Positions 11,499 through 31,897 of a DNA stretch of 64,000 bases are shown one piece after another; positions within the stretch are counted from its first letter, which is position 1, and every line of letters starts with the position of its first letter. The notes below the pieces were generated by a model, which worked only from the letters and a program-made list of their open reading frames with translations, was not told where the DNA came from and did not search any database. The translations under genes and the position numbers were made by a program. This DNA comes from Escherichia coli (GTDB lineage Bacteria > Pseudomonadota > Gammaproteobacteria > Enterobacterales > Enterobacteriaceae), in assembly GCF_022846255.1 (NCBI RefSeq), contig NZ_AP025682.1; one strand, 5' to 3'.

Positions 11499-13001
11499 TT
11501 ATTCATCAATTCGCGGATGTTGCTGCACCAGGCGGGTACGTTTCGCCTGCAAATCGGCAATCTCGTGGTCAATATCATCGATTTTCTGCTCGATATTATC
11601 GTAATGCTCGACGAGAATTTCCTTCGCTTCCTGTATATCTGACGCCGCTGGTGTCGCACCTTTCAACGGTCGATTCGCCGTCTCTTTCATGGTTACGCCG
11701 GTGATTAAACCAACCACCGCCACTACCATCAGGTAATAGGCAGGCATCATCAGATTCTGCGAGCTTTCGACCAGCCAGGCCGCCAGCGTTGGCGTCAGAC
11801 CGGCAACCAGCACCGAAATATTAAATGCCGCCGCCAGCGCGCTGTAACGGATATGCGTCGGGAACATCGCAGGCAAGGTAGAAGCCATAACGCCCGTAAA
11901 GCAGTTAAGGATCACCGCCAGCATCAATAAGCCGGCAAAAATCAGGCCGATGACGTTACTGTTAATCAGAATAAACGCCGGGATCGCCAACACAAACAGT
12001 GCAACACTACCAAGAAGCACAAACGGACGACGGCCAAAACGGTCACTCAGCAAGCCCATCACCGGTTGAACAAACAGCATACCGATCATAATGGCGATAA
12101 TAATCAGCACCCCGTGGTCTTCGGAGTAATGCAGGTTATGCGACAAATAACTCGGCATATAGGTCAGCAACATGTAGTAAGTCACGTTGGTGGCAATTAC
12201 CAGACCAATACATGTCAACAGGCTGCGCCAGTGTTTGGTGGCAATCTCTTTAAACGAGACTTTCGGGCCATCCTGCAAACCTTCGCGGTCGCCCTGTTCC
12301 AGTTTATCGACATGCTGCTGGAACGCCGGAGTCTCTTCCAGCGCATGGCGCAGGTAAAGCCCGATAATCCCTAACGGCAGAGCGATAAAGAACGGAATAC
12401 GCCAGCCCCAATCGAGGAAGTTCTCTTCGCCGACAATGGTCGAAATTAACACCACTACGCCAGCTCCCAGCACAAACCCGGCAATAGAACCAAAGTCCAG
12501 CCAGCTGCCCATAAAGCCACGTTTACGGTCAGGGGAGTATTCCGCAACAAATATTGACGCCCCGGTATATTCACCGCCGACCGAGAAACCTTGTGCCATC
12601 TTACAGATCAACAGCAGAATCGGTGCCCAAATACCAATCGTGTCGTAGGACGGTATTAAGCCAATACAGAACGTACTGATCGACATAATCACAATAGTGA
12701 TAGCGAGGATCTTCTGGCGACCATATTTATCGCCCAACATACCAAAGAAGAGCCCGCCAAGCGGTCGAATCAGAAAGGGAACGGAGAAAGTGGCGAGTGC
12801 AGCAACCATCTGCACGCTGGGGTCAGCCCCCGGGAAAAAAACTTTACCTAATGCGTAAGCAACAAAACCATAAACACCAAAATCGAACCATTCCATTGCA
12901 TTACCCAGTGATGCTGCGGTAATGGCTTTACGCAGTTTACCGTCATCAATAATGGTGACATCACGAAGGGTAATCGGTTTTACTTTTTTCCTTTTCAGCA
13001 T
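11499..13001 (-). CDS. proP: proline/glycine betaine:H+ symporter, osmosensing MFS transporter
   Basis: ORF track 11499..13034 trimmed to the start giving 500 aa (MLKRKKVKPITL...); MFS with C-terminal coiled-coil. Confidence 0.9.
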   Translation of the reverse strand: MLKRKKVKPITLRDVTIIDDGKLRKAITAASLGNAMEWFDFGVYGFVAYALGKVFFPGADPSVQMVAALATFSVPFLIRPLGGLFFGMLGDKYGRQKILAITIVIMSISTFCIGLIPSYDTIGIWAPILLLICKMAQGFSVGGEYTGASIFVAEYSPDRKRGFMGSWLDFGSIAGFVLGAGVVVLISTIVGEENFLDWGWRIPFFIALPLGIIGLYLRHALEETPAFQQHVDKLEQGDREGLQDGPKVSFKEIATKHWRSLLTCIGLVIATNVTYYMLLTYMPSYLSHNLHYSEDHGVLIIIAIMIGMLFVQPVMGLLSDRFGRRPFVLLGSVALFVLAIPAFILINSNVIGLIFAGLLMLAVILNCFTGVMASTLPAMFPTHIRYSALAAAFNISVLVAGLTPTLAAWLVESSQNLMMPAYYLMVVAVVGLITGVTMKETANRPLKGATPAASDIQEAKEILVEHYDNIEQKIDDIDHEIADLQAKRTRLVQQHPRIDE

Positions 13002-13264
13002 AGCTTTCCTCGCAGAGTTGGCCCATTTCCGCAAACGCCAGAAAAATCAGCGCGACGGCCGCAAAAGGGGAGCGGGAATTGCAGGATGCAATCTCTGTAA
13101 CAAGCGTAGCGGGTTTGCTTACACCCTCCGGTTAAGGAATGTACAATCAAACCAGTTGACGCCTGAATTGGGCAGTTAATGACCTTTTTACCCTACCAGT
13201 GTTTAAATTTGTGATCAACTTCACACATGTATTTCGTTTAGGACTCATTGGTGTAACTGATTAT

Positions 13265-14143
13265 TTACACCAAATTTACAGAGAAGATTTCCTCGACCAT
13301 TGCCCCCGCCAGACGCTGCGCTGAACAGAGTCGTGGCATCCCCAGCGCGACAGTTTGCCAACGTTGGGTCACTGACCAGCAAACGGGTTGTTTATCTGCC
13401 GTGGTCCACTTTCCCAGCCAACTTAAAAAATCAGCATGATCCCCGCCCGTCGGAATGGTCGAAGAGGCAAACCACTGATGGTAATAGTGACGCGTGGTCG
13501 GGGCCGCATTGATACTCTCTGCCAGATGTTGTGTCGCTTTCACGCGCAAATCACCCAGCAACAACGCCACCGCTTGCGGGCTTCCCAGACGAAAGGCATC
13601 GCCAAATGCACCCCAGCGCAACTCCTCCAGAACGATAAAACAGCGCCCAGGCAACGACCAGGCGTTATACGCCCCAGCACGCCAGCGGGTAAAAATTTGC
13701 TCGCTCTGATCACCTGCCTGCACCAGTAGGCCTCGTTGCGTTAACGCCTTTTCCTTCCAGCGACAACGGGCTGAAAACCACTCATACAAGGCGGCTATTT
13801 GCTGGGGGAGCTCAGGGAAAGCAGAGTGCTGGCGGTGATCCATTTTTTGCAGCAGCGCCAGATGTTGCGCGATCTGCGTCAGCGCCAGATGACCGGGATC
13901 CAGCATCGACGCCAGTTTTTCCACCAATGTCAGACGCAGGCTAAGCGGCGCATTTAACATCCCGCCGTTCGTCCATGCCTGAAGCTGCACACGCGCAAGA
14001 AGTTCCTGCATCAGTCGTTCACGAAACTGCTGCTGATGGGCTTGTGGATGGCGGGCATCATCGCCCTGCGCCAGATCCACTAAAAAGCGCGGATGAACCG
14101 ACTCCAGCACGCGACCGGGGCCGTCCAGTAACGTCTTGGTCAA
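13265..14143 (-). CDS. yjcZ: conserved protein YjcZ (CrfC partner)
   Basis: ORF track 292 aa; 4-nt overlap with the upstream crfC stop suggests co-translation. Confidence 0.8.
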   Translation of the reverse strand: MTKTLLDGPGRVLESVHPRFLVDLAQGDDARHPQAHQQQFRERLMQELLARVQLQAWTNGGMLNAPLSLRLTLVEKLASMLDPGHLALTQIAQHLALLQKMDHRQHSAFPELPQQIAALYEWFSARCRWKEKALTQRGLLVQAGDQSEQIFTRWRAGAYNAWSLPGRCFIVLEELRWGAFGDAFRLGSPQAVALLLGDLRVKATQHLAESINAAPTTRHYYHQWFASSTIPTGGDHADFLSWLGKWTTADKQPVCWSVTQRWQTVALGMPRLCSAQRLAGAMVEEIFSVNLV

Positions 14144-16368
14144 TATCGTTCTGCCGTGAAAAGTGTTTGAATATCATCGCGTAACAGCTGAGCGTCGGTG
14201 CAAATCCAGCTGTGAGTCATCACAGCCTGCTGCAATTGCTGCTGCATCAGCCTGACCACCGATTCATTTTGTTGACGCAGAGCCAGGCTTTCGCGTAAAC
14301 GCGTCTGTAATTCCGTCAAACATGAAGCGAACTCAGCGAAAAAAGTATTCATGCCTGCCGTAACAGATTCATCGACCTGCTCTGCCAGAACTTTAGCCAT
14401 TTGTTGGCAATAAAGATCGACTTCTGCGCTTAATGCTCGTTGCAACACACTGTAATCAACCGTCTCTGTCGGGGATTTCTCATTTCCCCGTCCCCAGTCG
14501 GGCTGATTCAACCAGCGCGAAAAAGTCTCACGCACAACGCCTAAACGCGTGCTCTGCTCGTCCGTTGCTTCCTGGCGCGAAATGACTTCACTGAACAGCT
14601 GGCGAGTGTTGAAGTGGGGAACTGCGCCGTGAAAAACAGGAAAATGAAACCCAGGACGAAACCCTGACTCGCTCAATTCCATTTTGATTTGTTGCTCAAT
14701 GGGGCGAATAACATCGGTTAACACCCGGCAAAGGGTAGATTCCAGCTCGGCAAAACGCAGCGTAAAGTCGCGACAGATGGTGTTCTGCGCCGTCTGTAAC
14801 AGTGTCTCACAGCGGGTACGAATCTCGCTTAACGGCTCCGAATCATCCTGAAACAACGCGGCTAACTGTGCATTCAGCGCATCTTGCTGTTGACGCAGAA
14901 AGTGGTTGGCGGAGGTCAGGGCCAGCTCGATTTCATGTTTAATCTCGCCGCTCACCTGCGCCTGATTGAGTTGAAATAGCTGCAAACTTTCTTCGACCTG
15001 ATGGATATTTTGCCGCAATTGTTCACAAGCGACGTTTAACCCGTGCGCACGAAAATCCAGGTATTCCCGCGCCTGCTGCGCGTAATTCAACAGTTTATGC
15101 ACGGCAGATCGCAGAGCATACAACGAGGCGTTAGCGTAAGCGGCATGAAGCAACGCCTGAATTGGCTGGGCGAACAGCGAATCTTCCCACAACTGATCGG
15201 CAGCATGACGAATATGTTCGAGGTCAGCCAGATCGGCATGACGCCAGCGCCTGCCGAGCGCGGCATGGGCAAAATCTTCCACCCAGCGTTGTTGTTGGGG
15301 GTCCGGCAGTCTGCCGCTGCTAGCTAACTCATGGCGAGCCCGATTCGCCAGATAGCCCCACATCGAAGATACCGGAAATATCTGCCCTGGCGTAACGCAG
15401 CCTTTCATCAACGTCCCGGAAATCAGCGCCCGCACCTGTTCGGCGTCGTCACTGTTACGATCCTGTTGATCGAACTTATTGACCAGCACATACAGCGGCA
15501 CCGATTGCCCCACCGCCAAAATCGCCTCACGGACCTCTTCATCGGAGATCGATTTCAGTTGCGTATAATCCAGCACCGCCAGTACCGCCGAGGCGCGTGC
15601 CAGCTGCTGGTTAAGCATTTTTTGCAGATGCGGTTGCCCGGCTTCATTTGGCCCGGGGGTATCCAGTAACGTCAATTGACCGGGATAACTCTCCAGCCCC
15701 GCCAGATGGACAAACTCCACTTCAATCACGGGAATATGCTCAATGGCGGCGTAAGCAGAAAAAGGAAAATCGACGTCCAGCGCCTTCGCCAGTCGCACCA
15801 AATCATTCAAACTTTTCAGACAATGAAAAATAGGCTGGGCACCCAGATAATATTTTTCGAAAGCGACGCCATTTTCGATCCGCTGCATAAGCGCACGCAT
15901 ATCTTTATCTATTTCCAGCACATCGGTCAGATGCTTAATATCGCAATCACGCAGGCGCTGTTGTAATTTTTGAATTAAACAATCGATTGGCGCGACATGT
16001 GAAAAATGCAGTACCGGTTCCTTTTGCCCGGGCGTATGGCGAATAAGCGTCGGCAGCGCAGTCATTGGGCGATTACGATTAGGCAAAACCTCCGTACCAA
16101 CAATGGCATTAATGGTGGTTGATTTCCCTGCTTTCATGGTACCGACAATCGCCAGCACCATTTCCAGTCGGGAAATTTTACGCAACTCATTATTCAGCAT
16201 CGCGTGACGTTCGGCGATATTAGGCTGACTCCAGGGTAAAGCCAGTTGTGGCGCATCGTCTCCTGGGACAGAGAGAGGCATTTTTTCCAGTAACTGCAAC
16301 TGTTGGCGAGAAAGCTGTAACAGGCGTTCAGCCTCCTGACTTAACTCATACAGGGTCTGTGTGTACAT
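14140..16368 (-). CDS. crfC: dynamin-like GTPase CrfC (YjdA)
   Basis: ORF track 742 aa; P-loop GTMKAGKST near the N-terminus; long coiled-coil regions. Confidence 0.85.
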   Translation of the reverse strand: MYTQTLYELSQEAERLLQLSRQQLQLLEKMPLSVPGDDAPQLALPWSQPNIAERHAMLNNELRKISRLEMVLAIVGTMKAGKSTTINAIVGTEVLPNRNRPMTALPTLIRHTPGQKEPVLHFSHVAPIDCLIQKLQQRLRDCDIKHLTDVLEIDKDMRALMQRIENGVAFEKYYLGAQPIFHCLKSLNDLVRLAKALDVDFPFSAYAAIEHIPVIEVEFVHLAGLESYPGQLTLLDTPGPNEAGQPHLQKMLNQQLARASAVLAVLDYTQLKSISDEEVREAILAVGQSVPLYVLVNKFDQQDRNSDDAEQVRALISGTLMKGCVTPGQIFPVSSMWGYLANRARHELASSGRLPDPQQQRWVEDFAHAALGRRWRHADLADLEHIRHAADQLWEDSLFAQPIQALLHAAYANASLYALRSAVHKLLNYAQQAREYLDFRAHGLNVACEQLRQNIHQVEESLQLFQLNQAQVSGEIKHEIELALTSANHFLRQQQDALNAQLAALFQDDSEPLSEIRTRCETLLQTAQNTICRDFTLRFAELESTLCRVLTDVIRPIEQQIKMELSESGFRPGFHFPVFHGAVPHFNTRQLFSEVISRQEATDEQSTRLGVVRETFSRWLNQPDWGRGNEKSPTETVDYSVLQRALSAEVDLYCQQMAKVLAEQVDESVTAGMNTFFAEFASCLTELQTRLRESLALRQQNESVVRLMQQQLQQAVMTHSWICTDAQLLRDDIQTLFTAERY

Positions 16369-16769
16369 AGAAAATTCTTCCTTAAAGCAAATTTTGTTAC
16401 TTTTATTTAGCCAGATTGTTTTTGAGTTCTGTTTTCGGCTTTTATAATTACTGCAAGAAATAATTTTATATTTAGAGTGTTGTTTTTTATTAGAATAAAT
16501 AATGTCTTCCGATACGTTTAAAACGTCAGAAAGATAAAAATATCATTTGAATTAAAAAAAGAACAAGTAGAGCATTAACCTTATCTTAAATAATAAATGG
16601 AGGCAAAAAGATTATTTTCTTTTTGCGTTTCCTTTCAAATGAAAACGATCGTCGTCTAAAATCAGCAGTACCCCCGACAAACTCAGGGATTTTGTGTATA
16701 ATTGCGGCCTTTTTCGGCAATCTGCCGTTTTTTGGCGCTTTTGCCCTGCTGACTTTTGAGGAAATCCAC

Positions 16770-17105
16770 ATGTCATTACCACACTGCCCAAAATGCAACT
16801 CCGAATACACCTACGAAGATAACGGCATGTACATCTGCCCGGAATGTGCCTACGAATGGAACGACGCAGAACCTGCACAGGAAAGCGACGAGCTGATCGT
16901 TAAAGATGCTAACGGCAATCTGCTGGCTGACGGCGACAGCGTTACCATCATTAAAGATCTGAAGGTGAAAGGTAGCTCTTCGATGCTGAAAATTGGCACC
17001 AAAGTGAAAAACATCCGCCTGGTTGAAGGCGACCATAACATCGATTGCAAAATCGACGGTTTTGGTCCGATGAAACTGAAATCTGAGTTTGTGAAAAAGA
17101 ACTGA
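16770..17105 (+). CDS. yjdM: zinc-ribbon protein YjdM (PhnA)
   Basis: ORF track 16623..17105 trimmed to ATG 16770 (111 aa, [19 protein letters not shown]...); CxxC...CxxC zinc ribbon. Confidence 0.85.
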
Positions 17106-17123
17106 TTGTATTGTGATCGGTAA

Positions 17124-17199
17124 GCCGGATAAGGCGCTCGCGCCGCATCCGGCAACGATGCCGACAGCCTGATGCGACGCTGACCGCGTCTTATCAGGC
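17124..17199. repeat. REP (repetitive extragenic palindrome) pair
   Basis: gccggataaggcgctcgcgccgcatccggc and gcctgatgcgacgctgaccgcgtcttatcaggc; typical REP stem-loops. Confidence 0.75.
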
Positions 17200-17264
17200 T
17201 TCCCTCTCATCTGTATAAATTTCGAACTACACTTAACTGGCTTCTCTTAACTGAGGTCACCATC

Positions 17265-17708
17265 ATGCCGTTAAGTCCCTACCTCTCTTTTGCCGGTAAC
17301 TGTGCCGACGCAATTGCTTATTATCAACGTACGTTGGGCGCTGAACTGCTCTATAAAATCAGCTTCGGCGAAATGCCAAAATCAGCGCAGGACAGCGCCG
17401 AGAACTGCCCTTCCGGAATGCAATTTCCCGATACCGCCATCGCCCACGCCAATGTGCGCATTGCCGGAAGCGATATCATGATGAGCGATGCTATACCGTC
17501 AGGAAAAGCCAGCTACTCCGGCTTTACGCTGGTGCTCGATTCGCAACAGGTCGAAGAAGGAAAACGCTGGTTTGACAACCTTGCCGCTAACGGAAAAATC
17601 GAAATGGCCTGGCAGGAAACTTTCTGGGCGCATGGCTTCGGCAAAGTCACCGATAAATTTGGCGTACCGTGGATGATTAATGTCGTCAAACAACAACCAA
17701 CGCACTAA
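17265..17708 (+). CDS. yjdN: glyoxalase/bleomycin-resistance-fold protein YjdN (PhnB)
   Basis: ORF track 147 aa. Confidence 0.8.
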   Translation: MPLSPYLSFAGNCADAIAYYQRTLGAELLYKISFGEMPKSAQDSAENCPSGMQFPDTAIAHANVRIAGSDIMMSDAIPSGKASYSGFTLVLDSQQVEEGKRWFDNLAANGKIEMAWQETFWAHGFGKVTDKFGVPWMINVVKQQPTH

Positions 17709-17763
17709 CCCGCCGGGAGGGCCGCCCTCCCGCACTGTCATCGAATTCCCGTTAACTCTTCAT

Positions 17764-17796
17764 CTGTTAGTCACTTTTAATTAACCAAATCGTCAC
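17764..17796 (+). promoter_or_regulatory. putative Pho box (PhoB-binding direct repeats) of the phnC promoter
   Basis: ctgttagtcac ttttaattaac caaatcgtcac, 11-nt phased repeats with TGTYA/GTCAC cores about 45 to 75 nt upstream of the phnC ATG; another CTGTCAT at 17735. Confidence 0.5.
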
Positions 17797-17840
17797 AATA
17801 ATCCGCCACGATGGAGCCACTTTTTTAGGGAGGCTGCATC

Positions 17841-18629
17841 ATGCAAACGATTATCCGTGTCGAGAAGCTCGCCAAAACCTTCAATCAGCATCAGGCGCTG
17901 CACGCGGTTGATCTGAACATTCATCACGGTGAAATGGTGGCTCTGCTTGGGCCGTCGGGTTCCGGCAAATCCACCCTTTTACGTCACTTAAGCGGTTTGA
18001 TTACCGGCGATAAATCTGCCGGTAGCCATATCGAGCTGCTGGGCCGCACAGTCCAGCGCGAAGGCCGCCTGGCCCGCGATATCCGCAAAAGCCGCGCCAA
18101 CACCGGCTACATCTTCCAACAATTCAACCTGGTGAATCGCCTGAGCGTACTGGAGAACGTGCTGATTGGCGCGCTCGGCAGCACGCCATTCTGGCGCACC
18201 TGTTTTAGCTACTTCACCCGCGAGCAGAAACAGCGCGCGTTACAGGCGCTGACCCGCGTTGGCATGGTGCACTTTGCCCATCAGCGCGTTTCCACACTCT
18301 CCGGCGGCCAGCAACAGCGTGTGGCGATTGCCCGCGCGCTGATGCAGCAGGCGAAGGTGATTCTGGCCGATGAACCCATCGCCTCGCTGGACCCGGAATC
18401 AGCGCGCATCGTGATGGACACCCTGCGCGACATCAACCAGAACGACGGCATTACCGTGGTCGTCACGCTGCATCAGGTGGATTACGCCCTGCGCTACTGC
18501 GAACGCATCGTCGCCCTGCGCCAGGGGCACGTCTTCTACGACGGCAGCAGCCAACAGTTTGATAACGAACGTTTTGACCATCTCTACCGCAGCATTAACC
18601 GCGTCGAAGAGAACGCGAAAGCTGCCTGA
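17841..18629 (+). CDS. phnC: phosphonate ABC transporter ATP-binding protein
   Basis: ORF track 262 aa; Walker [13 protein letters not shown] signature LSGGQQQR. Confidence 0.9.
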
Positions 18630-18653
18630 CATCCCCATCATTGAGGAAAACGA

Positions 18654-19670
18654 ATGAACGCTAAGATAATTGCCTCGCTGGCCTTCACCAGCATGTTCAG
18701 CCTCAGCACCCTGTTAAGCCCGGCGCACGCCGAAGAGCAGGAAAAGGCGCTGAATTTCGGCATTATTTCAACGGAATCACAGCAAAACCTGAAACCGCAA
18801 TGGACGCCGTTCTTACAGGATATGGAAAAGAAGCTGGGCGTGAAAGTGAACGCCTTCTTTGCCCCGGACTACGCGGGCATTATCCAGGGAATGCGTTTTA
18901 ATAAAGTGGATATCGCCTGGTACGGCAACCTGTCGGCAATGGAAGCGGTGGATCGCGCCAACGGTCAGGTCTTCGCCCAGACGGTCGCGGCAGATGGATC
19001 GCCGGGTTACTGGAGCGTGTTGATCGTCAACAAAGATAGTCCGATCAACAACCTGAACGATCTGCTGGCGAAGCGGAAAGATCTCACCTTCGGCAATGGC
19101 GATCCTAACTCTACCTCCGGCTTCCTCGTCCCCGGTTACTACGTCTTCGCTAAAAACAATATCTCCGCCAGCGACTTTAAGCGCACCGTCAACGCCGGGC
19201 ATGAAACCAACGCCCTCGCCGTCGCTAACAAGCAAGTGGATGTCGCCACCAACAACACCGAAAACCTCGACAAGCTGAAAACCTCCGCGCCGGAGAAGCT
19301 GAAAGAACTGAAGGTGATCTGGAAATCACCGCTGATCCCTGGCGATCCGATCGTCTGGCGCAAAAATCTTTCCGAAACCACTAAAGACAAGATCTACGAC
19401 TTCTTTATGAATTACGGCAAAACGCCGGAAGAGAAAGCGGTGCTGGAACGCCTGGGCTGGGCCCCGTTCCGCGCCTCCAGCGACCTGCAACTGGTGCCGA
19501 TTCGCCAGCTCGCACTGTTTAAAGAGATGCAAAGCGTGAAGGACAACAAAGGGCTGAACGAACAGGACAAGCTGGCAAAAACCACTGCCATTCAGGTGCA
19601 ACTGGATGATTTGGACCGCCTGAACAACGCGTTAAGCGCAATGAGTTCGGTGAGTAAAGCGGTGCAGTAA
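18654..19670 (+). CDS. phnD: phosphonate ABC transporter periplasmic binding protein
   Basis: ORF track 338 aa; N-terminal signal peptide. Confidence 0.9.
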
Positions 19671-19673
19671 ATC

Positions 19674-19759
19674 GTAGGTCGGATAAGACGCCCGGCGTCG
19701 CATCCGACAATGTGCAGACGTTGATGCCGGATGCGGTGCAAGCACCTTATCCGGCCTAC
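19674..19759. repeat. REP pair between phnD and phnE
   Basis: gtaggtcggataagacgcccggcgtcgcatccgaca and gatgccggatgcggtgcaagcaccttatccggcctac. Confidence 0.75.
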
Positions 19760-19774
19760 AGACCGGAGCCAAAC

Positions 19775-20554
19775 ATGCAAACCATCACCATCGCCCCACC
19801 CAAGCGCAGCTGGTTCTCGCTTCTGAGCTGGGCCGTTGTTATCGCCGTGCTGGTCGTCTCGTGGCAGGGCGCGGAAATGGCCCCGCTTACGCTGATTAAA
19901 GATGGCGGCAACATGGCGACGTTCGCCGCCGACTTCTTCCCGCCCGATTTCAGCCAGTGGCAGGATTACCTCACCGAAATGGCCGTCACGCTGCAAATCG
20001 CCGTCTGGGGCACCGCGCTGGCGGTGGTTCTCTCCATCCCCTTCGGCCTGATGAGCGCTGAAAACCTGGTACCGTGGTGGGTCTACCAACCTGTACGCCG
20101 CCTGATGGACGCCTGCCGCGCCATTAACGAAATGGTCTTCGCCATGCTGTTCGTGGTCGCCGTCGGCCTCGGCCCGTTCGCTGGCGTGCTGGCGCTGTTT
20201 ATCCACACCACCGGCGTACTTTCCAAACTGCTTTCCGAAGCGGTAGAAGCGATTGAACCCGGCCCGGTGGAGGGCATTCGCGCCACTGGTGCCAACAAGC
20301 TGGAAGAGATCCTCTACGGCGTACTACCGCAGGTCATGCCGCTGCTGATTTCCTACTCTCTCTATCGCTTCGAATCCAACGTCCGCTCGGCGACCGTCGT
20401 CGGTATGGTTGGCGCGGGCGGAATTGGCGTCACGCTGTGGGAAGCGATTCGCGGTTTCCAGTTCCAGCAAACCTGCGCCCTGATGGTGCTCATCATCGTC
20501 ACGGTCAGCCTGCTGGATTTCCTCTCTCAACGGTTGCGTAAGCACTTTATCTGA
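19775..20554 (+). CDS. phnE: phosphonate ABC transporter permease (intact reading frame)
   Basis: ORF track 19712..20554 starts inside the REP; ATG 19775 with SD GGAG gives 259 aa (MQTITIAPP...); no frameshift. Confidence 0.85.
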
Positions 20555-20574
20555 TAAGCGAGGCATTGATATCT

Positions 20575-21300
20575 ATGCACTTGTCTACACATCCGACCAG
20601 CTACCCAACACGCTATCAGGAGATAGCCGCAAAACTTGAGCAGGAGCTTCGTCAACACTACCGCTGCGGCGACTATCTTCCCGCCGAGCAGCAACTGGCG
20701 GCGCGCTTTGAGGTGAACCGCCACACCCTGCGCCGCGCCATCGACCAACTGGTGGAAAAAGGCTGGGTACAGCGCCGTCAGGGCGTCGGCGTACTGGTGC
20801 TGATGCGCCCGTTCGATTACCCGCTCAATGCCCAGGCGCGTTTTAGCCAGAACCTGCTGGACCAGGGCAGCCATCCCACCAGCGAAAAATTGCTATCGGT
20901 GCTGCGCCCCGCCTCCGGTCACGTCGCTGACGCGCTGGGGATAACCGAGGGGGAGAACGTTATCCACCTGCGCACCCTGCGTCGGGTCAACGGCGTCGCG
21001 CTCTGTTTAATCGACCACTACTTTGCGGACCTCACCCTCTGGCCGACGCTTCAATGCTTTGACAGCGGTTCGCTACACGATTTTCTGCGCGAGCAAACGG
21101 GGATTACGCTACGACGCAGTCAGACGCGGATCAGCGCCCGCCGCGCCCAGGCCAAAGAGTGCCAGCGTCTTGAAATTCCGAATATGTCGCCGCTGCTGTG
21201 CGTGCGCACCCTTAACCACCGTGACGGTGAAAGCAGCCCGGCGGAATACTCCGTCAGCCTGACACGCGCCGACATGATTGAATTCACTATGGAGCACTGA
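20575..21300 (+). CDS. phnF: GntR-family repressor of the phn operon
   Basis: ORF track begins at TTG 20566; ATG 20575 gives 241 aa; GntR HTH plus UTRA domain. Confidence 0.85.
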   Translation: MHLSTHPTSYPTRYQEIAAKLEQELRQHYRCGDYLPAEQQLAARFEVNRHTLRRAIDQLVEKGWVQRRQGVGVLVLMRPFDYPLNAQARFSQNLLDQGSHPTSEKLLSVLRPASGHVADALGITEGENVIHLRTLRRVNGVALCLIDHYFADLTLWPTLQCFDSGSLHDFLREQTGITLRRSQTRISARRAQAKECQRLEIPNMSPLLCVRTLNHRDGESSPAEYSVSLTRADMIEFTMEH

Positions 21301-21753
21301 ATGCACGCAGATACCGCGACCCGCCAGCACTGGATGTCCGTGCTGGCGCACAGCCAACCGGCTGAACTGGCAGCCCGCCTGAACGCGCTGAACATCACCG
21401 CCGACTATGAAGTAATCCGCGCCGCTGAAACCGGCCTGGTGCAGATTCAGGCGCGGATGGGTGGCACCGGCGAACGCTTTTTTGCTGGCGACGCCACGCT
21501 CACCCGCGCCGCCGTACGCCTGACTGACGGCACGCTCGGCTACAGCTGGGTGCTGGGGCGCGACAAACAGCACGCCGAACGCTGCGCGCTGATCGACGCG
21601 CTGATGCAGCAAACCCGCCATTTTCAAAACTTATCAGAAACTCTTATTGCCCCGCTGAACGCTGACCGTATGGCACGCATTGCCGCACGCCAGGCCGAAG
21701 TAAACGCCAGCCGGGTCGACTTCTTTACGATGGTTCGCGGAGATAACGCATGA
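21301..21753 (+). CDS. phnG: C-P lyase complex subunit
   Basis: ORF track 150 aa; operon position. Confidence 0.85.
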
Positions 21754-22334
21754 CCCTGGAAACCGCTTTTATGCTTCCCGTGCAGGATGCCCAGCACAGT
21801 TTTCGTCGCCTGTTAAAGGCCATGAGCGAGCCGGGCGTGATTGTCGCCCTGCATCAGCTCAAACGCGGCTGGCAGCCGCTGAATATCGCCACCACCAGCG
21901 TGCTGCTGACGCTGGCCGATAACGACACGCCGGTGTGGCTTTCTGCGCCATTAAGTAACGATATCGTCAGCCAGAGCCTGCGTTTTCATACCAACGCGCC
22001 GCTGGTCAATCAGCCGGAACTGGCGACCTTCGCGGTAACGGATGAGGCGATTTCCAGCGAACAGCTTAACGCCCTTTCCAGCGGCACCGCTGTTGCGCCA
22101 GAAGCGGGCGCGACGCTGATTTTACAGGTCGTCAGCCTGAGCGGCGGGCGCATGCTGCGCCTTACTGGCGCGGGTATTGCCGAAGAACGAATGATCGCCC
22201 CGCAGCTGCCGGAGTGCATTCTGCACGAACTTACCGAGCGCCCGCACCCGTTCCCGCTCGGCATCGACCTGATCCTGACCTGCGGCGAGCGCCTGCTGGC
22301 TATCCCGCGAACCACTCATGTGGAGGTGTGCTGA
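21750..22334 (+). CDS. phnH: C-P lyase complex subunit
   Basis: ORF track 194 aa; 4-nt overlap with phnG. Confidence 0.85.
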
Positions 22335-23398
22335 TGTACGTTGCCGTGAAAGGGGGCGAGAAGGCGATCGACGCCGCCCACGCCCTGCAAGAGAGCCGAC
22401 GCCGGGGCAATACCGATTTGCCTGAACTGAGCGTCGCCCAGATTGAACAGCAGCTTAATCTTGCAGTAGATCGCGTGATGACCGAAGGCGGCATTGCCGA
22501 CCGCGAACTGGCGGCGCTGGCGCTGAAACAGGCCAGCGGCGATAACGTCGAAGCGATTTTCCTGCTACGCGCCTACCGCACCACGCTGGCGAAGCTTGCG
22601 GTGAGCGAGCCGCTCGACACCACGGAGATGCGTCTCGAACGGCGTATTTCAGCGGTTTATAAAGATATTCCCGGCGGCCAGCTGCTTGGCCCAACCTACG
22701 ACTACACCCATCGCCTGCTCAATTTCACCCTGCTGGCAAACGGCGAAGCGCCGACGCTGACCACCGCCGACAGCGAACAACAGCCGTCGCCGCACGTTTT
22801 CAGCCTGCTGGCGCGTCAGGGGCTGGCGAAGTTTGAAGAAGATAGCGGCGCACAGCCGGACGACATCACCCGCACGCCGCCGGTTTACCCCTGCTCACGC
22901 TCCTCCCGCCTGCAACAATTAATGCGCGGCGACGAAGGCTATTTGCTGGCGCTGGCCTACTCCACCCAGCGTGGTTACGGACGCAATCATCCGTTCGCAG
23001 GCGAAATCCGCAGCGGCTATATCGACGTGTCGATTGTGCCGGAAGAGCTGGGATTTGCGGTGAACGTCGGCGAACTGCTGATGACCGAATGTGAAATGGT
23101 CAACGGTTTTATCGACCCGCCGGATGAGCCGCCGCACTTCACGCGCGGCTACGGGCTGGTGTTCGGCATGAGCGAGCGCAAAGCGATGGCGATGGCGCTG
23201 GTTGACCGCGCTCTACAAGCCCCGGAGTACGGCGAGCACGCGACAGGCCCGGCGCAGGATGAAGAGTTCGTGCTGGCGCATGCCGACAACGTCGAAGCCG
23301 CAGGCTTTGTCTCGCACCTTAAACTCCCGCACTACGTCGATTTCCAGGCCGAACTGGAGCTACTCAAACGTCTGCAACAGGAGCAGAACCATGGCTAA
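22334..23398 (+). CDS. phnI: C-P lyase complex subunit (nucleosidase-like)
   Basis: ORF track 22214..23398 trimmed to ATG 22334 (354 aa, [13 protein letters not shown]...), which overlaps the phnH stop. Confidence 0.85.
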   Translation: MYVAVKGGEKAIDAAHALQESRRRGNTDLPELSVAQIEQQLNLAVDRVMTEGGIADRELAALALKQASGDNVEAIFLLRAYRTTLAKLAVSEPLDTTEMRLERRISAVYKDIPGGQLLGPTYDYTHRLLNFTLLANGEAPTLTTADSEQQPSPHVFSLLARQGLAKFEEDSGAQPDDITRTPPVYPCSRSSRLQQLMRGDEGYLLALAYSTQRGYGRNHPFAGEIRSGYIDVSIVPEELGFAVNVGELLMTECEMVNGFIDPPDEPPHFTRGYGLVFGMSERKAMAMALVDRALQAPEYGEHATGPAQDEEFVLAHADNVEAAGFVSHLKLPHYVDFQAELELLKRLQQEQNHG

Positions 23399-24236
23399 TC
23401 TGAGCGGCTACAACTTTGCCTACCTCGACGAGCAGACCAAACGCATGATCCGCCGCGCCATCTTAAAAGCGGTGGCGATCCCCGGTTATCAGGTGCCGTT
23501 TGGCGGGCGCGAGATGCCGATGCCGTACGGCTGGGGAACTGGTGGTATCCAGCTTACCGCCAGCGTGATTGGCGAAAGCGATGTGCTGAAGGTGATTGAC
23601 CAGGGCGCGGACGACACCACCAACGCGGTGTCGATCCGTAACTTCTTTAAGCGCGTGACCGGGGTAAACACTACCGAACGCACGGACGATGCGACGCTTA
23701 TCCAGACGCGCCATCGCATCCCCGAAACGCCGCTCACCGAAGATCAGATCATTATTTTCCAGGTGCCGATCCCCGAACCGCTGCGCTTTATCGAGCCGCG
23801 CGAAACGGAAACCCGCACCATGCACGCGCTGGAGGAGTACGGCGTGATGCAGGTGAAACTGTATGAAGATATCGCCCGCTTCGGTCATATCGCCACCACC
23901 TATGCCTATCCGGTGAAGGTGAACGGGCGCTACGTGATGGACCCGTCGCCGATCCCGAAATTCGATAACCCGAAAATGGACATGATGCCCGCCCTGCAGC
24001 TGTTCGGCGCAGGGCGCGAGAAGCGCATCTATGCGGTGCCGCCGTTTACCCGCGTGGAAAGTCTCGATTTCGACGATCACCCGTTCACCGTTCAGCAGTG
24101 GGATGAGCCATGCGCCATCTGCGGATCGACCCACAGCTATCTCGACGAAGTGGTGCTGGATGACGCCGGAAACCGCATGTTTGTCTGCTCCGATACCGAT
24201 TATTGCCGCCAACAGAGCGAGGCAAAAAACCAATGA
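23391..24236 (+). CDS. phnJ: C-P lyase catalytic subunit (radical SAM-related, Cys-rich C-terminus)
   Basis: ORF track 23202..24236 trimmed to ATG 23391 (281 aa, MANLSGYNFAYLDEQTKR...); CxxCxxxxxC cluster. Confidence 0.85.
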   Translation: MANLSGYNFAYLDEQTKRMIRRAILKAVAIPGYQVPFGGREMPMPYGWGTGGIQLTASVIGESDVLKVIDQGADDTTNAVSIRNFFKRVTGVNTTERTDDATLIQTRHRIPETPLTEDQIIIFQVPIPEPLRFIEPRETETRTMHALEEYGVMQVKLYEDIARFGHIATTYAYPVKVNGRYVMDPSPIPKFDNPKMDMMPALQLFGAGREKRIYAVPPFTRVESLDFDDHPFTVQQWDEPCAICGSTHSYLDEVVLDDAGNRMFVCSDTDYCRQQSEAKNQ

Positions 24237-24991
24237 ATCAACCGTTACTTTCGGTCAATAACCTGACCCACCTTTACGCGCCGGGCAAAGGCTTTAGCGA
24301 TGTCTCTTTTGATTTATGGCCGGGGGAAGTGCTGGGCATCGTCGGGGAATCCGGCTCCGGGAAGACCACGCTGCTGAAGTCGATCTCCGCGCGCCTGACG
24401 CCGCAGCAGGGGGAAATTCGCTATGAAAACCGTTCCCTCTATGGCATGAGCGAGGCCGACCGCCGTCGCCTGCTGCGCACCGAATGGGGCGTGGTGCATC
24501 AGCATCCACTCGACGGCCTGCGCCGCCAGGTGTCGGCAGGCGGCAATATCGGCGAGCGGCTGATGGCGACCGGGGCGCGTCATTACGGCGATATTCGTGC
24601 CACCGCGCAGAAGTGGCTGGAAGAGGTGGAAATTCCCGCCAACCGGATCGACGACCTGCCGACCACCTTTTCCGGCGGTATGCAGCAGCGTTTGCAGATT
24701 GCCCGCAACCTGGTGACGCATCCGAAGCTGGTATTTATGGACGAGCCAACCGGCGGGCTGGATGTATCTGTGCAGGCGCGCCTGCTCGACCTGCTGCGCG
24801 GCCTGGTGGTGGAGCTGAACCTGGCGGTGGTGATTGTCACCCACGATTTAGGCGTCGCCCGCCTGCTGGCGGACCGTTTGCTGGTGATGAAGCAGGGGCA
24901 AGTAGTGGAGAGTGGGTTAACCGACCGCGTGCTCGACGACCCGCATCACCCGTATACCCAGCTGCTGGTGTCATCTGTTTTGCAGAATTGA
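24233..24991 (+). CDS. phnK: C-P lyase-associated ABC-type ATPase
   Basis: ORF track trimmed to ATG 24233 (252 aa); Walker [10 protein letters not shown]. Confidence 0.85.
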
Positions 24992-25082
<91 letters not shown>

Positions 25083-25101
25083 CCGAACCACGAGGCGAAA
25101 A

Positions 25102-25782
25102 ATGATTAACGTACAAAACGTCAGTAAAACCTTCATCCTGCATCAGCAAAACGGCGTGCGCCTGCCCGTATTACAACGTGCCTCGCTCACCGTCAACGCA
25201 GGCGAATGCGTGGTGCTTCACGGCCACTCCGGCAGCGGAAAATCAACCCTGCTGCGCTCGCTGTACGCCAACTATCTGCCCGACGAAGGGCAAATCCAGA
25301 TCAAACACGGTGAGGAATGGGTAGACCTGGTCACCGCGCCAGCCCGCAAAGTGGTGGAGATCCGCAAAACCACCATCGGCTGGGTGAGCCAGTTTCTGCG
25401 CGTCATCCCGCGTATTTCGGCACTGGAAGTGGTGATGCAGCCTCTGCTCGATACCGGCGTACCGCGTGAAGCCTGCGCCGCTAAAGCCGCCCGATTACTG
25501 ACGCGCCTGAACGTGCCTGAACGCCTGTGGCACCTGGCACCATCGACCTTCTCCGGCGGCGAACAGCAGCGCGTCAACATCGCCCGTGGCTTTATCGTCG
25601 ACTATCCGATTCTGCTGCTGGATGAACCCACCGCCTCGCTGGACGCTAAAAACAGCGCCGCGGTGGTGGAATTAATTCGCGAAGCCAAAGCCCGTGGCGC
25701 GGCCATCGTCGGTATCTTCCATGACGAAGCCGTACGCAATGACGTCGCCGACCGCCTGCACCCAATGGGAGTCTCTTCATGA
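25102..25782 (+). CDS. phnL: C-P lyase-associated ABC-type ATPase
   Basis: ORF track 24484..25782 is an over-extension through the REP; ATG 25102 gives 226 aa ([11 protein letters not shown]...); Walker [10 protein letters not shown]. Confidence 0.85.
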
Positions 25783-26915
25783 TTATCAATAACGTCAAAC
25801 TGGTGCTGGAAAACGAAGTGGTGCACGGTTCACTGGAAGTACAGGATGGCAAAATTCGCGCCTTTGCCGAAAGCCAGAGCCGCCAGCCGGAAGCGATGGA
25901 CGGCGAAGGTGGCTGGCTGCTGCCGGGGCTGATTGAGCTGCATACCGATAATCTGGATAAATTCTTCACCCCGCGTCCAAAAGTGGACTGGCCCGCCCAC
26001 TCGGCAATGAGTAGCCACGACGCGCTGATGGTGGCGAGCGGCATCACCACCGTGCTGGACGCGGTGGCGATTGGCGACGTGCGCGACGGCGGCGATCGGC
26101 TGGAGAATCTGGAGAAGATGATCAACGCCATCGAAGAGACGCAGAAACGCGGCGTCAACCGCGCCGAGCACCGCCTGCACCTGCGCTGCGAACTGCCGCA
26201 CCACACCACGTTGCCGCTGTTTGAAAAACTGGTGCAGCGCGAACCGGTGACGCTGGTATCGCTGATGGACCACTCGCCAGGCCAGCGCCAGTTCGCCAAT
26301 CGCGAGAAGTATCGCGAATATTATCAGGGCAAATATTCCCTCACCGATGCGCAGATGCAGCAGTACGAAGAGGAACAGCTGGCGCTTGCCGCACGCTGGT
26401 CACAGCCTAATCGCGAAACTATCGCCGCAATGTGCCGCGCGCGACACATTGCCCTCGCCAGCCACGATGACGCCACGCACGCCCACGTTGCCGAATCCCA
26501 CCAGCTTGGCAGCGTGATCGCCGAATTTCCCACCACGTTCGAAGCGGCAGAAGCCTCGCGCAAGCATGGCATGAACGTGCTGATGGGCGCGCCGAATATC
26601 GTGCGCGGCGGTTCGCACTCCGGCAACGTGGCGGCCAGTGAACTGGCGCAGCTTGGCCTGCTGGATATCCTCTCTTCCGATTACTACCCCGCCAGCCTGC
26701 TCGATGCGGCATTTCGCGTCGCCGATGACGAGATCAACCGCTTTACGCTGCCGCAGGCGGTGAAGCTGGTGACTAAAAATCCGGCGCAGGCGCTTAATCT
26801 TCAGGATCGCGGGGTGATTGGCGAGGGCAAACGCGCCGACCTGGTGCTGGCGCATCGCAAGGGCAACCACATTCATATCGACCACGTCTGGCGTCAGGGT
26901 AAAAGGGTGTTCTGA
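25779..26915 (+). CDS. phnM: amidohydrolase-family ribose-triphosphate phosphonate diphosphohydrolase
   Basis: ORF track 378 aa. Confidence 0.85.
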
Positions 26916-27472
26916 TGACGGGAAAACTGATTTGGTTAATGGGGGCCTCTGGCTCCGGAAAAGACAGTCTGTTGACGGAACTCCGCCAGCGGGAACAAAC
27001 TCAGCTACTGGTAGCGCATCGCTACATCACGCGTGATGCCAGCGCCGGAAGTGAAAATCATATCGCCTTAAGCGAGCGGGAGTTTTTTACCCGCGCGGGG
27101 CAAAATCTGTTGGCCCTGAGCTGGCATGCTAATGGTTTGTATTACGGTGTCGGCATTGAGATCGACCTCTGGCTGCACGCCGGATTCGACGTCGTGGTTA
27201 ACGGCTCACGCGCCCACCTGCCGCAGGCGCGGGCGCGTTATCAATCGGCGCTGCTGCCCATCTGTTTACAGGTTTCGCCGGAGATCCTGCGCCAGCGCCT
27301 GGAAAACCGTGGCCGCGAAAACGCCAGTGAAATTAATGCCCGGCTGGCGCGCGCCGCCCGCTATACTCCTCAGGATTGCCATACACTCAATAATGACGGC
27401 AGCCTGCGCCAGTCGGTCGACACGCTGCTGACGCTGATTCATCAGAAGGAGAAACACCATGCCTGCTTGTGA
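26915..27472 (+). CDS. phnN: ribose 1,5-bisphosphate phosphokinase
   Basis: ORF track 185 aa; P-loop GASGSGKDS; 1-nt overlap with phnM. Confidence 0.85.
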
Positions 27473-27893
27473 ACTTCGCCCGGCAACGCAGTACGACACC
27501 GACGCGGTTTACGCGCTGATTTGTGAGCTAAAACAAGCGGAGTTTGACCACCAGGCGTTTCGCGTGGGCTTTAACGCCAACCTGCGCGACCCGAACATGC
27601 GCTACCATCTGGCGCTGTTGGATGGCGAGGTTGTCGGCATGATCGGCCTGCATTTGCAGTTTCATCTGCATCATGTCAACTGGATCGGCGAAATTCAGGA
27701 ACTGGTGGTGATGCCGCAGGCGCGCGGTCTGAACGTCGGCAGTAAATTACTGGCATGGGCAGAAGAAGAAGCCCGCCAGGCTGGGGCCGAAATGATCGAG
27801 CTTTCCACCAACGTGAAGCGCCACGACGCGCACCGTTTTTACCTGCGTGAAGGCTACGAGCAGAGCCACTTCCGCTTCACCAAGGAGCTGTAA
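27459..27893 (+). CDS. phnO: GNAT aminoalkylphosphonate N-acetyltransferase
   Basis: ORF track 144 aa. Confidence 0.85.
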
Positions 27894-27894
27894 T

Positions 27895-28653
27895 ATGAGC
27901 CTGACCCTCACGCTCACCGGCACCGGCTGCGCACAGGGCGTTCCGGCATGGGGCTGCGAGTGCGTAGCCTGCGCCAGAGCGCGGCGCTCACCGCAGTATC
28001 GCCGCCAGCCGTGCAGCGGCGTAGTGAAGTTTAACGAGGCGATCACCCTGATCGACGCCGGGCTGCACGATCTCGCCGATCGCTGGTCGCCCGGATCGTT
28101 CCAGCAGTTTTTACTGACGCACTACCATATGGATCACGTCCAGGGGCTGTTTCCGCTGCGCTGGGGCGTGGGCAATCAGATCCCGGTCTACGGTCCACCG
28201 GATGAGCAGGGCTGCGACGATCTGTTTAAACATCCGGGCCTGCTTGATTTCAGCCACACGGTGGAGCCGTTTGTGGTGTTTGATTTGCAGGGGTTGCAGG
28301 TCACGCCGCTGCCGCTTAACCATTCGAAACTCACTTTCGGCTATTTACTGGAAACGGCGCACAGCCGGGTGGCGTGGCTATCTGACACCGCAGGCCTGCC
28401 GGAAAAAACGCTGAAATTTTTACGCAATAATCAGCCGCAGGTAATGGTGATTGATTGCAGCCACCCGCCGCGCGAGGATGCACCGCGTAATCACTGTGAT
28501 TTAAATACCGTGCTGGCGCTGAATGAGGTTATCCGCTCGCCGCGCGTGATTCTGACCCATATCAGCCACCGGTTTGATGCGTGGCTGATGGAAAACGCGC
28601 TACCATCGGGGTTTGAGGCGGGGTTTGATGGGATGGAGATTGAGGTGGCGTGA
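27895..28653 (+). CDS. phnP: metallo-beta-lactamase-fold phosphodiesterase
   Basis: ORF track 27847..28653 trimmed to ATG 27895 (252 aa, [11 protein letters not shown]...); HYHMDH motif. Confidence 0.85.
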
Positions 28654-28680
28654 GGGAAAATACCCGCGCCGGCCCCTATA

Positions 28681-29010
28681 TCAACGCCCATACTCATCTT
28701 CCATTCTCCGCTCTTCATCTTCCAGTTGCCGACGCTCCTGATCAAGCTGGCGCTGGCGATCGTCCAGCTGCCTGCGGCGATCTTCAAACTGGCGGCGGCG
28801 GTCATCATATTGTCTGCGCCGATCGTCGCTCACTTCACGCTGCCAGCCGTCGTCGCGCGAATCTTCATAGTCTCGCCCACGGTCAGGGTTATAAGCGTCG
28901 TTAATCGCCTGCTGAATATTGCCAATGGTGTCGTCGATAATATCGGCCTGGGCCGGAACGGTGGACAGCGTGAGCAGGGTGAATAAAAGAAATAGCGGAA
29001 AGCGTTTCAT
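28681..29010 (-). CDS. yjdP: secreted protein YjdP with charged heptad-like repeats
   Basis: ORF track 109 aa; signal peptide then reiterated RRRQxDD-type units. Confidence 0.8.
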   Translation of the reverse strand: MKRFPLFLLFTLLTLSTVPAQADIIDDTIGNIQQAINDAYNPDRGRDYEDSRDDGWQREVSDDRRRQYDDRRRQFEDRRRQLDDRQRQLDQERRQLEDEERRMEDEYGR

Positions 29011-29078
29011 TAGCCAACCTCAAAAAGAAACTCTATCCACATTAGTCATTACTCATCCATGCAAGTAGTGGATGAATC

Positions 29079-29528
29079 TCAATTTCTCCGCTGCTCTATT
29101 GCCGTAATCGCCTCCACGCGTTGTTGATGACGACCGCCTTCGTACTGTGCGCCCAGCCACGCATCGACAATCATTTTTGCCAGTTCGAGGCCAACCACTC
29201 GTGAACCAAAAGCCAGCACGTTGGTATCGTTATGCTGCCGCGAAAGTTGCGCGGAATAAGGTTCGCTACAAACGACCGCGCGAATTCCGGCAAACTTGTT
29301 CGCCGCTATCGAAATACCGACGCCAGTGCCACAAATCAAAATCCCGCCATCAGCCTCTCCGCCAGCAACGGCCAGTGCGACTTGACTGGCGTAATGCGGA
29401 TAATCAGTACGCTCTGACGACCAGGTTCCTTTATCAATCACTTCAACGCCACGCTCAACTAAATGTGCCACTATTTCATGTTTTAAAATGAAACCGACAT
29501 GATCACAGCCAAATGCAATCTTTTTCAT
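29079..29528 (-). CDS. rpiB: ribose-5-phosphate isomerase B / allose-6-phosphate isomerase
   Basis: ORF track 149 aa; RpiB/LacAB family. Confidence 0.9.
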   Translation of the reverse strand: MKKIAFGCDHVGFILKHEIVAHLVERGVEVIDKGTWSSERTDYPHYASQVALAVAGGEADGGILICGTGVGISIAANKFAGIRAVVCSEPYSAQLSRQHNDTNVLAFGSRVVGLELAKMIVDAWLGAQYEGGRHQQRVEAITAIEQRRN

Positions 29529-29886
29529 TCATCTTCCCCGCCCGTGCAAAACTTCACAATCAAAAAACATTTGTGATGTAAATGAATTAAAAACATCCAA
29601 AATCGATGAAATCCGCCTTCCCGATCTGTTTTACAGAGTTACATCTGGCAGCGCAATAGCGTTAAAGACACTCACTATCCAGCAACATCTATCATCTAAT
29701 AAACCAGGAAGACAAATAACATCATGTTTTTAAAGTGATTAAATGAAATAAAATTTTAAGCTACTCTCCATTATTCACAACAAAACAAACTTTATAAATT
29801 TTATTTTTTTGTGAAGTTACCAGCATCTTTTCTGTTCTTGCTGTGGTGATATAGTGGCGTCTTCAATTCAAGGACAAGAGAACGTG

Positions 29887-30777
29887 ATGAGCCAGTCAGA
29901 GTTTGATTCAGCGCTTCCGAACGGTATCGGGTTAGCGCCTTACCTGCGAATGAAGCAGGAAGGAATGACAGAAAACGAAAGCCGCATCGTGGAGTGGTTA
30001 CTCAAACCCGGTAACCTGAGTTGTGCACCCGCAATTAAAGATGTCGCAGAAGCTCTGGCGGTATCTGAAGCGATGATCGTTAAGGTATCAAAGCTGCTGG
30101 GGTTTAGCGGCTTTCGTAACTTACGCAGTGCGCTGGAAGATTATTTTTCTCAGTCAGAACAAGTATTGCCTTCCGAGTTGGCTTTTGATGAAGCGCCGCA
30201 GGATGTGGTGAATAAGGTATTTAACATCACTTTACGCACCATTATGGAAGGTCAGTCGATCGTCAACGTTGATGAGATCCACCGTGCCGCCCGCTTTTTC
30301 TATCAGGCCAGACAGCGGGATTTGTACGGTGCCGGAGGATCAAATGCTATCTGTGCTGATGTACAGCACAAGTTTTTGCGCATTGGCGTACGCTGCCAGG
30401 CCTATCCGGACGCTCACATCATGATGATGTCTGCTTCGTTGTTACAGGAAGGAGATGTGGTGCTGGTGGTGACTCATTCCGGGCGGACCAGTGATGTAAA
30501 AGCGGCTGTAGAACTGGCAAAAAAGAACGGGGCAAAGATTATTTGTATAACGCATAGCTATCATTCACCAATAGCGAAGCTGGCCGATTATATTATTTGC
30601 TCACCGGCCCCGGAAACACCGTTATTAGGTCGTAATGCCTCGGCAAGAATATTACAACTGACTTTGCTGGACGCGTTTTTTGTCTCTGTCGCCCAGCTCA
30701 ACATTGAACAAGCTAATATTAATATGCAAAAAACCGGCGCAATTGTTGATTTCTTCTCACCAGGCGCGCTGAAATAA
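29887..30777 (+). CDS. rpiR: RpiR/AlsR family repressor (HTH plus SIS domain)
   Basis: ORF track 29854..30777 trimmed to ATG 29887 (296 aa, MSQSEFDSALPNG...). Confidence 0.85.
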   Translation: MSQSEFDSALPNGIGLAPYLRMKQEGMTENESRIVEWLLKPGNLSCAPAIKDVAEALAVSEAMIVKVSKLLGFSGFRNLRSALEDYFSQSEQVLPSELAFDEAPQDVVNKVFNITLRTIMEGQSIVNVDEIHRAARFFYQARQRDLYGAGGSNAICADVQHKFLRIGVRCQAYPDAHIMMMSASLLQEGDVVLVVTHSGRTSDVKAAVELAKKNGAKIICITHSYHSPIAKLADYIICSPAPETPLLGRNASARILQLTLLDAFFVSVAQLNIEQANINMQKTGAIVDFFSPGALK

Positions 30778-30835
30778 GAAAAAGGTAATTCCGCCATCGC
30801 GGAGTTACCTCTCCCCTTACCGTGAGAACATGATT

Positions 30836-31771
30836 ATGAATAAATATCTGAAATATTTCAGCGGCACACTCGTGGGCTTAATGTTGTCAACCAGCGCTTT
30901 TGCTGCCGCCGAATATGCCGTCGTATTGAAAACACTCTCCAATCCATTTTGGGTAGATATGAAAAAAGGCATTGAAGATGAAGCAAAAACGCTGGGCGTC
31001 AGCGTTGATATTTTTGCCTCTCCTTCAGAAGGCGATTTTCAATCTCAATTGCAGTTATTTGAAGATCTCAGTAATAAAAATTACAAAGGTATCGCCTTCG
31101 CACCATTATCCTCAGTGAACCTGGTCATGCCTGTTGCCCGCGCATGGAAAAAAGGCATTTATCTGGTCAATCTCGATGAAAAAATCGACATGGATAATCT
31201 GAAAAAAGCAGGCGGTAATGTGGAAGGTTTTGTCACCACCGATAATGTTGCCGTCGGGGCGAAAGGCGCGTCATTCATTATTGACAAGCTGGGTGCCGAA
31301 GGGGGTGAAGTCGCAATCATTGAGGGTAAAGCCGGTAACGCCTCCGGTGAAGCGCGTCGTAATGGTGCCACCGAAGCCTTCAAAAAAGCAAGCCAGATCA
31401 AGCTTGTCGCCAGCCAGCCTGCCGACTGGGACCGTATTAAAGCACTGGATGTCGCCACTAACGTGTTGCAACGTAATCCGAATATTAAAGCGATCTATTG
31501 CGCGAATGACACGATGGCAATGGGTGTTGCTCAGGCAGTCGCAAACGCTGGAAAAACGGGCAAAGTGTTGGTCGTCGGTACAGATGGCATTCCGGAAGCC
31601 CGCAAAATGGTGGAAGCCGGACAAATGACCGCGACGGTTGCCCAGAACCCGGCGGATATCGGTGCAACGGGTCTGAAGCTGATGGTTGACGCTGAGAAAT
31701 CCGGCAAGGTTATCCCGCTGGATAAAGCACCGGAATTTAAACTGGTCGATTCAATCCTGGTCACTCAATAA
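30836..31771 (+). CDS. alsB: D-allose ABC transporter periplasmic binding protein
   Basis: ORF track begins 30830; ATG 30836 gives 311 aa with a signal peptide. Confidence 0.88.
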   Translation: MNKYLKYFSGTLVGLMLSTSAFAAAEYAVVLKTLSNPFWVDMKKGIEDEAKTLGVSVDIFASPSEGDFQSQLQLFEDLSNKNYKGIAFAPLSSVNLVMPVARAWKKGIYLVNLDEKIDMDNLKKAGGNVEGFVTTDNVAVGAKGASFIIDKLGAEGGEVAIIEGKAGNASGEARRNGATEAFKKASQIKLVASQPADWDRIKALDVATNVLQRNPNIKAIYCANDTMAMGVAQAVANAGKTGKVLVVGTDGIPEARKMVEAGQMTATVAQNPADIGATGLKLMVDAEKSGKVIPLDKAPEFKLVDSILVTQ

Positions 31772-31780
31772 AACTGAATG

Positions 31781-31865
31781 ATGCCGGATGATGATGCTAA
31801 TGAAGTGTCTTATCCGGCCAACAAAATAACCTGAACGTAGACCTGATAAACGTAGCCATCAGGCA
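31781..31865. repeat. REP-like palindromic elements between alsB and alsA
   Basis: gatgccggatg...cttatccggcc and gacctgataaacgtagccatcaggc. Confidence 0.6.
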
Positions 31866-31897
31866 ATAATACGATATTTCGTGCAGAGAGGTTATTT

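Follow-up and report, generated by a model that had tools for sequence, protein, structure and literature searches.

The window, by which we mean the whole stretch of 64,000 nucleotides of Escherichia coli DNA that was analysed, carries the phosphonate uptake and C-P lyase genes in one run from phnC to phnP. The short tandem repeat considered here lies in phnE, the third gene of this operon, whose predicted product is the membrane permease of PhnCDE, an ABC importer of phosphonates. The features, with their positions in the window, are as follows.

17709..17840 (+): phnC upstream region with the Pho-regulated promoter, 131/132 bases identical to K-12
17841..18629 (+): phnC, ATP-binding subunit, 262 aa; NF007438, 606 bits, full length; K-12 length
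18654..19670 (+): phnD, periplasmic phosphonate-binding protein, 338 aa; TIGR03431, 376.5 bits; K-12 length
19775..20554 (+): phnE, permease subunit of the PhnCDE importer; ATG at 19775, 259 codons plus stop
20180..20187 (+): 8-nt unit 1, GCTGGCGT, the unit duplicated in K-12 and lost in revertants (PMC6469041)
20188..20195 (+): 8-nt unit 2, GCTGGCGC, the terminal variant unit, last in two-, three- and four-unit alleles
20575..21300 (+): phnF, GntR-type regulator, 241 aa; NF007486, 515.6 bits, full length
21301..28653 (+): phnG-phnP, ten C-P lyase pathway genes, all open and of K-12 length

All 14 genes from phnC to phnP are open, start with ATG, end in one terminal stop and have exactly the K-12 lengths. 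Upstream of them, the sequence CTGTTAGTCACTTTTAATTAAC... at about 17764 is presumably the Pho box of the phnC promoter. PhnG and PhnH match their own NCBIfam equivalogs, while the identity of PhnI-PhnP is taken from synteny and length only. PhnI (354 aa, full length, 22334-23398) matched no NCBIfam family at E <= 1e-10; this probably reflects a gap in NCBIfam and not a peculiarity of phnI itself. PhnI orthologues in related loci carry Pfam PF05861. Judged by its genes, the window apparently has a complete operon for phosphonate uptake and C-P lyase.

The phnE reading frame runs from 19775 to 20554 without an internal stop, and the original prediction of an uninterrupted gene of 259 codons is thereby borne out. 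Starting instead from the in-frame GTG at 19712, which precedes the ATG by 63 nt, would lengthen the product to 280 aa; the RefSeq start of the orthologue in the nearest genome is the ATG and not this GTG. When the stretch 19712-19774 was included in the query, the first 52 query bases were left unmatched by BLAST in several genomes (match from base 53), so lineages differ in their phnD-phnE spacer. The predicted protein scored 311.5 bits against the NCBIfam equivalog TIGR01097 (cut-off 216.7), with residues 16-258 aligned to profile positions 8-251 of 252, and its gene is preceded by phnC and phnD and followed by phnF and the C-P lyase genes. Exactly the same 259-aa protein is extremely common in public assemblies (36,531 index blocks), where its gene is invariably flanked by phnD and phnF and the protein has the ABC-permease domain PF00528 (BPD_transp_1). 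Downstream of the repeat, an EAA-type motif of 19 residues can be read in the translation, which we take, from general knowledge of ABC permeases, to be the cytoplasmic EAA loop.

Read directly, the repeat consists of two adjacent octamers, GCTGGCGT and GCTGGCGC, alike at 7/8 positions, in agreement with the two near-identical 8-mers first noticed at 20180-20195. In both the window and K-12, nt 406 of the reading frame (codon 136) is the first base of the tract, and the perfect period-8 stretch measures 15 nt in the window versus 23 nt in K-12. Tandem Repeats Finder reported no repeat within window positions 19700-20600, because two octamer copies lie below any score threshold. Adjacent 8-mers with at most one mismatch were found at 16 loci in the window, compared with 16.4 ± 3.1 expected from first-order Markov simulations. 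The octamer pair in phnE is no commoner than chance, and it matters only as the homologue of the published K-12 frameshift site.

Direct alignment with K-12 MG1655 (NC_000913.3) gave GCTGGCGT GCTGGCGT GCTGGCGC in K-12 and GCTGGCGT GCTGGCGC in the window, with flanks that agree at every base over the preceding 54 nt and the following 38 nt. The K-12 gene is annotated as the pseudogene phnE1 (b4583), its translation going out of frame after ...FAGVLA (codon 141) and meeting a stop at codon 190; RefSeq labels the three- and four-unit phnE genes as 'frameshifted' pseudogenes. The claim that K-12 carries an extra 8-bp unit that shifts the frame is thus confirmed, and the alignment, named beforehand as the check for an equal count in K-12, returned three units against two. 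When one K-12 unit was removed in silico, the gene encoded a 259-aa protein that differs from the window PhnE only by L23I (258/259). At the nucleotide level, the two phnE genes differ by 35 substitutions in 764 non-repeat positions, 34 of them synonymous, which on the sequence indicates strong and continued purifying selection. Identity to K-12 is 94.5% in phnE, 95.9% over the surrounding 6.4 kb and about 96% over the operon.

The published accounts describe the same site. The K-12 gene was noted to have 'three, not two' units (PMC7566553), K-12 revertants lose one unit by slippage (PMC4759930), and in a sequenced revertant 5'-GCTGGCGT was deleted at positions 407-414 of the reading frame by this route (PMC6469041), as had been stated for the cryptic K-12 gene at the outset. 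Phosphonate-proficient strains include E. coli B and selected K-12 revertants (PMC3463581). All four papers cite Makino 1991 and Iqbal 2004.

The two-unit count had also been taken to show that the window is not from K-12 MG1655. This conclusion holds on account of the 35 phnE substitutions; the argument from the count does not, because RefSeq contains a two-unit MG1655 derivative (NZ_CP032679.1) that is 100% identical to the in silico revertant, and repeat count alone cannot exclude the K-12 lineage. That the window itself is a K-12 revertant was considered and is ruled out by the same substitutions. The window has no close match among 5,426 complete E. coli genomes in RefSeq: identity reached at most 98.0% over 12000-32000, with many B2-type strains tied, and 99.1% over 40000-60000. 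The nearest phnE was that of strain A20 from bat faeces in Mexico (99.6%).

Compared with the alleles already described, the window gene is orthologous to the cryptic phn(EcoK0) phnE of K-12 (phnE1, b4583) and shares its flanks and unit, but the K-12 allele has three units, a frameshift and a stop at codon 190, whereas with its two units the window gene stays open. It corresponds to the functional phnE of phn(EcoB) and phn(EcoK+) (Makino et al. 1991; Iqbal et al. 2004) in gene, nt-406 site and unit GCTGGCGT, and likewise in having two units and an in-frame product of 259 aa, of which 258 residues are those of the K-12 revertant. The window haplotype, however, lies 35 substitutions from K-12, and its allele is very probably ancestral rather than a revertant.

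The distribution of the alleles was followed in the 5,426 complete genomes with allele-specific short queries whose 28-base seed spans the tract. phnE was matched in 5,394 of them, the other 32 having no phnE match. Three units were found as a full-length match in 998 genomes, and 14 further genomes gave partial matches to the three-unit query, one of which, read directly, has four units. Two units with window-type flanks were present in 2,462 genomes; this total is a lower bound, since the allele counts leave out about 1,500 genomes, such as those of the Z503 type, in which other SNPs in the flanks disrupt the 28-base seed. A synonymous variant, GCTGGCGTACTGGCGC, whose units are alike at 6/8 positions only, was found in 409 genomes; this change (GTG to GTA) is accompanied by a flank change from GGC to GGT.

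The four-unit allele belongs to strain TB4328 (NZ_AP038823.1; chicken meat, Viet Nam), in which three copies of GCTGGCGT are followed by GCTGGCGC; the tract is 16 nt longer and the gene is annotated as frameshifted. The four-unit count is this one genome read directly, and 13 others share its partial-match pattern. A 55-mer query for four units was non-discriminating, as two overlapping pieces on three-unit genomes were joined into '100% coverage'. A search of the species-representative genome collection with the pattern CCGTTCGCTGGCGT N{0,24} GCTGGCGCTGTTTATCCA, covering 2-5 units, gave no match; this exact pattern would miss an E. coli representative with a flank or GTA variant.

Two sets of records stood apart in the census. 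In NZ_CP122499.1 (strain W409), the match to the phnE query covers no more than its initial 233 bases, and the annotated features there read 'hypothetical protein | phnF', which in sequence terms suggests an internal deletion or rearrangement of phnE. Five phnE places were counted as 'on plasmids'; the 94,239-bp record NZ_CP048307.1 (strain 9) carries the chromosomal phn and fdhF-acs-nrf region. Such 'plasmid' places are probably chromosome fragments or misassigned replicons.

K-12 phnE has a synonymous G at nt 491 (GAG), homologous to window position 20257, where every other haplotype read has GAA. An exact 41-mer around this G matched 359 genomes, and the 30 of these 359 that were listed all look like K-12 laboratory derivatives, nearly all of them recognisably so, or have K-12-like strain names. 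The nt-491 G thus appears to be private to K-12 and could serve as a lineage marker. About 640 of the 998 three-unit genomes lack this SNP and so apparently do not derive from K-12; they make up roughly 12-13% of the collection, and hosts and sources of three-unit strains outside K-12 include human, dog, duck, chicken and frog-farm sediment.

The haplotypes on which the alleles reside were also compared, the three- and four-unit alleles being represented by a sample of 11 sequences out of a far larger set (998 three-unit genomes). All ten three-unit alleles read lie on one phnE haplotype, 0-2 substitutions from K-12, and so does the four-unit allele. The two-unit alleles sampled occur on many haplotypes, 12-36 substitutions from K-12, and the window haplotype is 34-35 substitutions from the sampled three- and four-unit haplotype. 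The K-12-type haplotype (at least 99.9% identity) was found with two units in only 5 genomes. A three-unit construct with the window-type downstream SNPs had no full-length counterpart better than 95.6% in the 5,426 genomes, and the best matches were K-12-type alleles.

Taken together, we put at roughly 93% the reading that the window holds the common in-frame two-unit phnE within an intact 14-gene phnCDEFGHIJKLMNOP operon, the gene being switched off in K-12 through tandem duplication of one unit by slippage. The duplicated GCTGGCGT adds 8 bases in K-12, so that the frame is lost after codon 141 and translation stops at codon 190, and this truncation would remove the cytoplasmic EAA loop and the C-terminal membrane helices of PhnE. 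From general knowledge of ABC permeases, phosphonate import is therefore expected to be blocked in K-12, although the C-P lyase genes are present. Units would be gained and lost by slipped-strand mispairing during replication, the mechanism given in the literature, and the slipped intermediate is predicted to pair over 15 bp in the three-unit allele versus only 7 bp in the two-unit allele. From this difference the two-unit state should be much more stable, and we infer that events from three to two and from three to four units are much likelier than those from two to three. In the lineages with GCTGGCGTACTGGCGC, where the units agree at only 6/8 positions, slippage should be still less likely. 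A very stable two-unit state, at least in the K-12 background, would be argued against by the work of Iqbal in 2004, in which the unit is said to have been re-inserted frequently in K-12 Phn+ revertants. The census fits the inferred rarity of gains from two to three units: going by the haplotypes sampled, the duplication seems to have a single origin, or few, and to persist on one haplotype, where it occasionally contracts or expands. The best reading of the window phnE would be a stable ancestral ON allele and not one phase of an active switch.

An active switch would mean that the two units are the ON phase of a contingency locus and that the clone happened to be sequenced while ON, and we consider this unlikely. 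Tract length does change in nature, the K-12-type haplotype showing two, three and four units on a near-identical gene, and the local context of the window, which shares with K-12 the 54 nt leading up to the tract and the 38 nt beyond it, would permit the same events; Iqbal 2004, to judge by its title, describes reversible phase variation in K-12. Copy-number variants within a near-identical lineage were found for the K-12-type haplotype and not for that of the window. No three-unit allele with window-type SNPs was seen in the 5,426 genomes, where the best candidates were K-12-type at 95.6%, and the ten sampled three-unit alleles and the four-unit allele share a single haplotype 34-35 substitutions from that of the window. 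The tract of the window moreover offers a perfect repeat of just 7 bp, and two-copy 8-mers occur there at chance frequency. The contingency loci of Neisseria and Haemophilus are alike in that a gene is switched on or off by the copy number of a short tandem unit within its coding sequence, a likeness that extends to the K-12-type phnE haplotype with its 2, 3 and 4 copies. They differ in that the phnE tract has only 2-4 octamer copies, in the window a 15-nt period-8 stretch, and in that the phnE OFF allele looks single in origin, confined to one haplotype and not recurring across lineages.

The pathway might also be non-functional in spite of an open phnE, through a missense, regulatory or downstream lesion, which we regard as very unlikely. 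Room for such a lesion is left by PhnI-PhnP, assessed by length and open frame only, with PhnI lacking an NCBIfam match; against it, the exact 259-aa PhnE is among the commonest in public assemblies, and the conservative L23I is all that separates it from the protein of the K-12 revertant. In addition, 14/14 genes have the K-12 length, the region upstream of phnC is identical at 131/132 bases, and the strongly synonymous substitutions point to continued purifying selection. That the window allele is a recent revertant of a three-unit ancestor, and not the ancestral state, is scarcely credible: such revertants do arise readily in K-12 (PMC6469041, PMC4759930) and RefSeq includes a few with the K-12-type haplotype, but 35 substitutions separate the window from the one haplotype on which three units were seen, every other sampled haplotype has two, and no three-unit relative of the window haplotype was found in the 5,426 genomes.

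With the common two-unit allele as the preferred reading, the functional state claimed for phnE at the start is what the intact reading frame, the intact operon and the near-identical protein predict, and the strain of the window would be expected, when starved of phosphate, to draw its phosphorus from phosphonates. The polymorphism is already known, and the window phnE shows it in the ordinary state. For the window itself it carries little weight beyond showing an apparently complete operon and a sequence that is not K-12.

Functional PhnCDE can also take up phosphate (PMC6469041), and in K-12 either phosphonate use or phosphate uptake through PhnCDE needs reversion. The value of the census is modest: the OFF allele is common outside K-12, its sampled copies are on one haplotype and a four-unit form exists in one genome. 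It nevertheless qualifies two common descriptions, of the defect as peculiar to K-12 and of the locus as a switch that reverses freely. Tentatively, and with the odds leaning against it, the three-unit phnE may be neither a laboratory oddity of K-12 nor a freely equilibrating phase switch but an OFF allele of single origin, linked to one haplotype and maintained in E. coli in nature, because about 640 carriers are apparently not K-12 derivatives and only 5 genomes on the haplotype have two units despite easy reversion in the laboratory. If this is true, selection would keep PhnCDE import off in that lineage, for example against the uptake of toxic phosphonates, and the two-unit allele of the window would be a stable ancestral ON allele rather than the phase of a switch.
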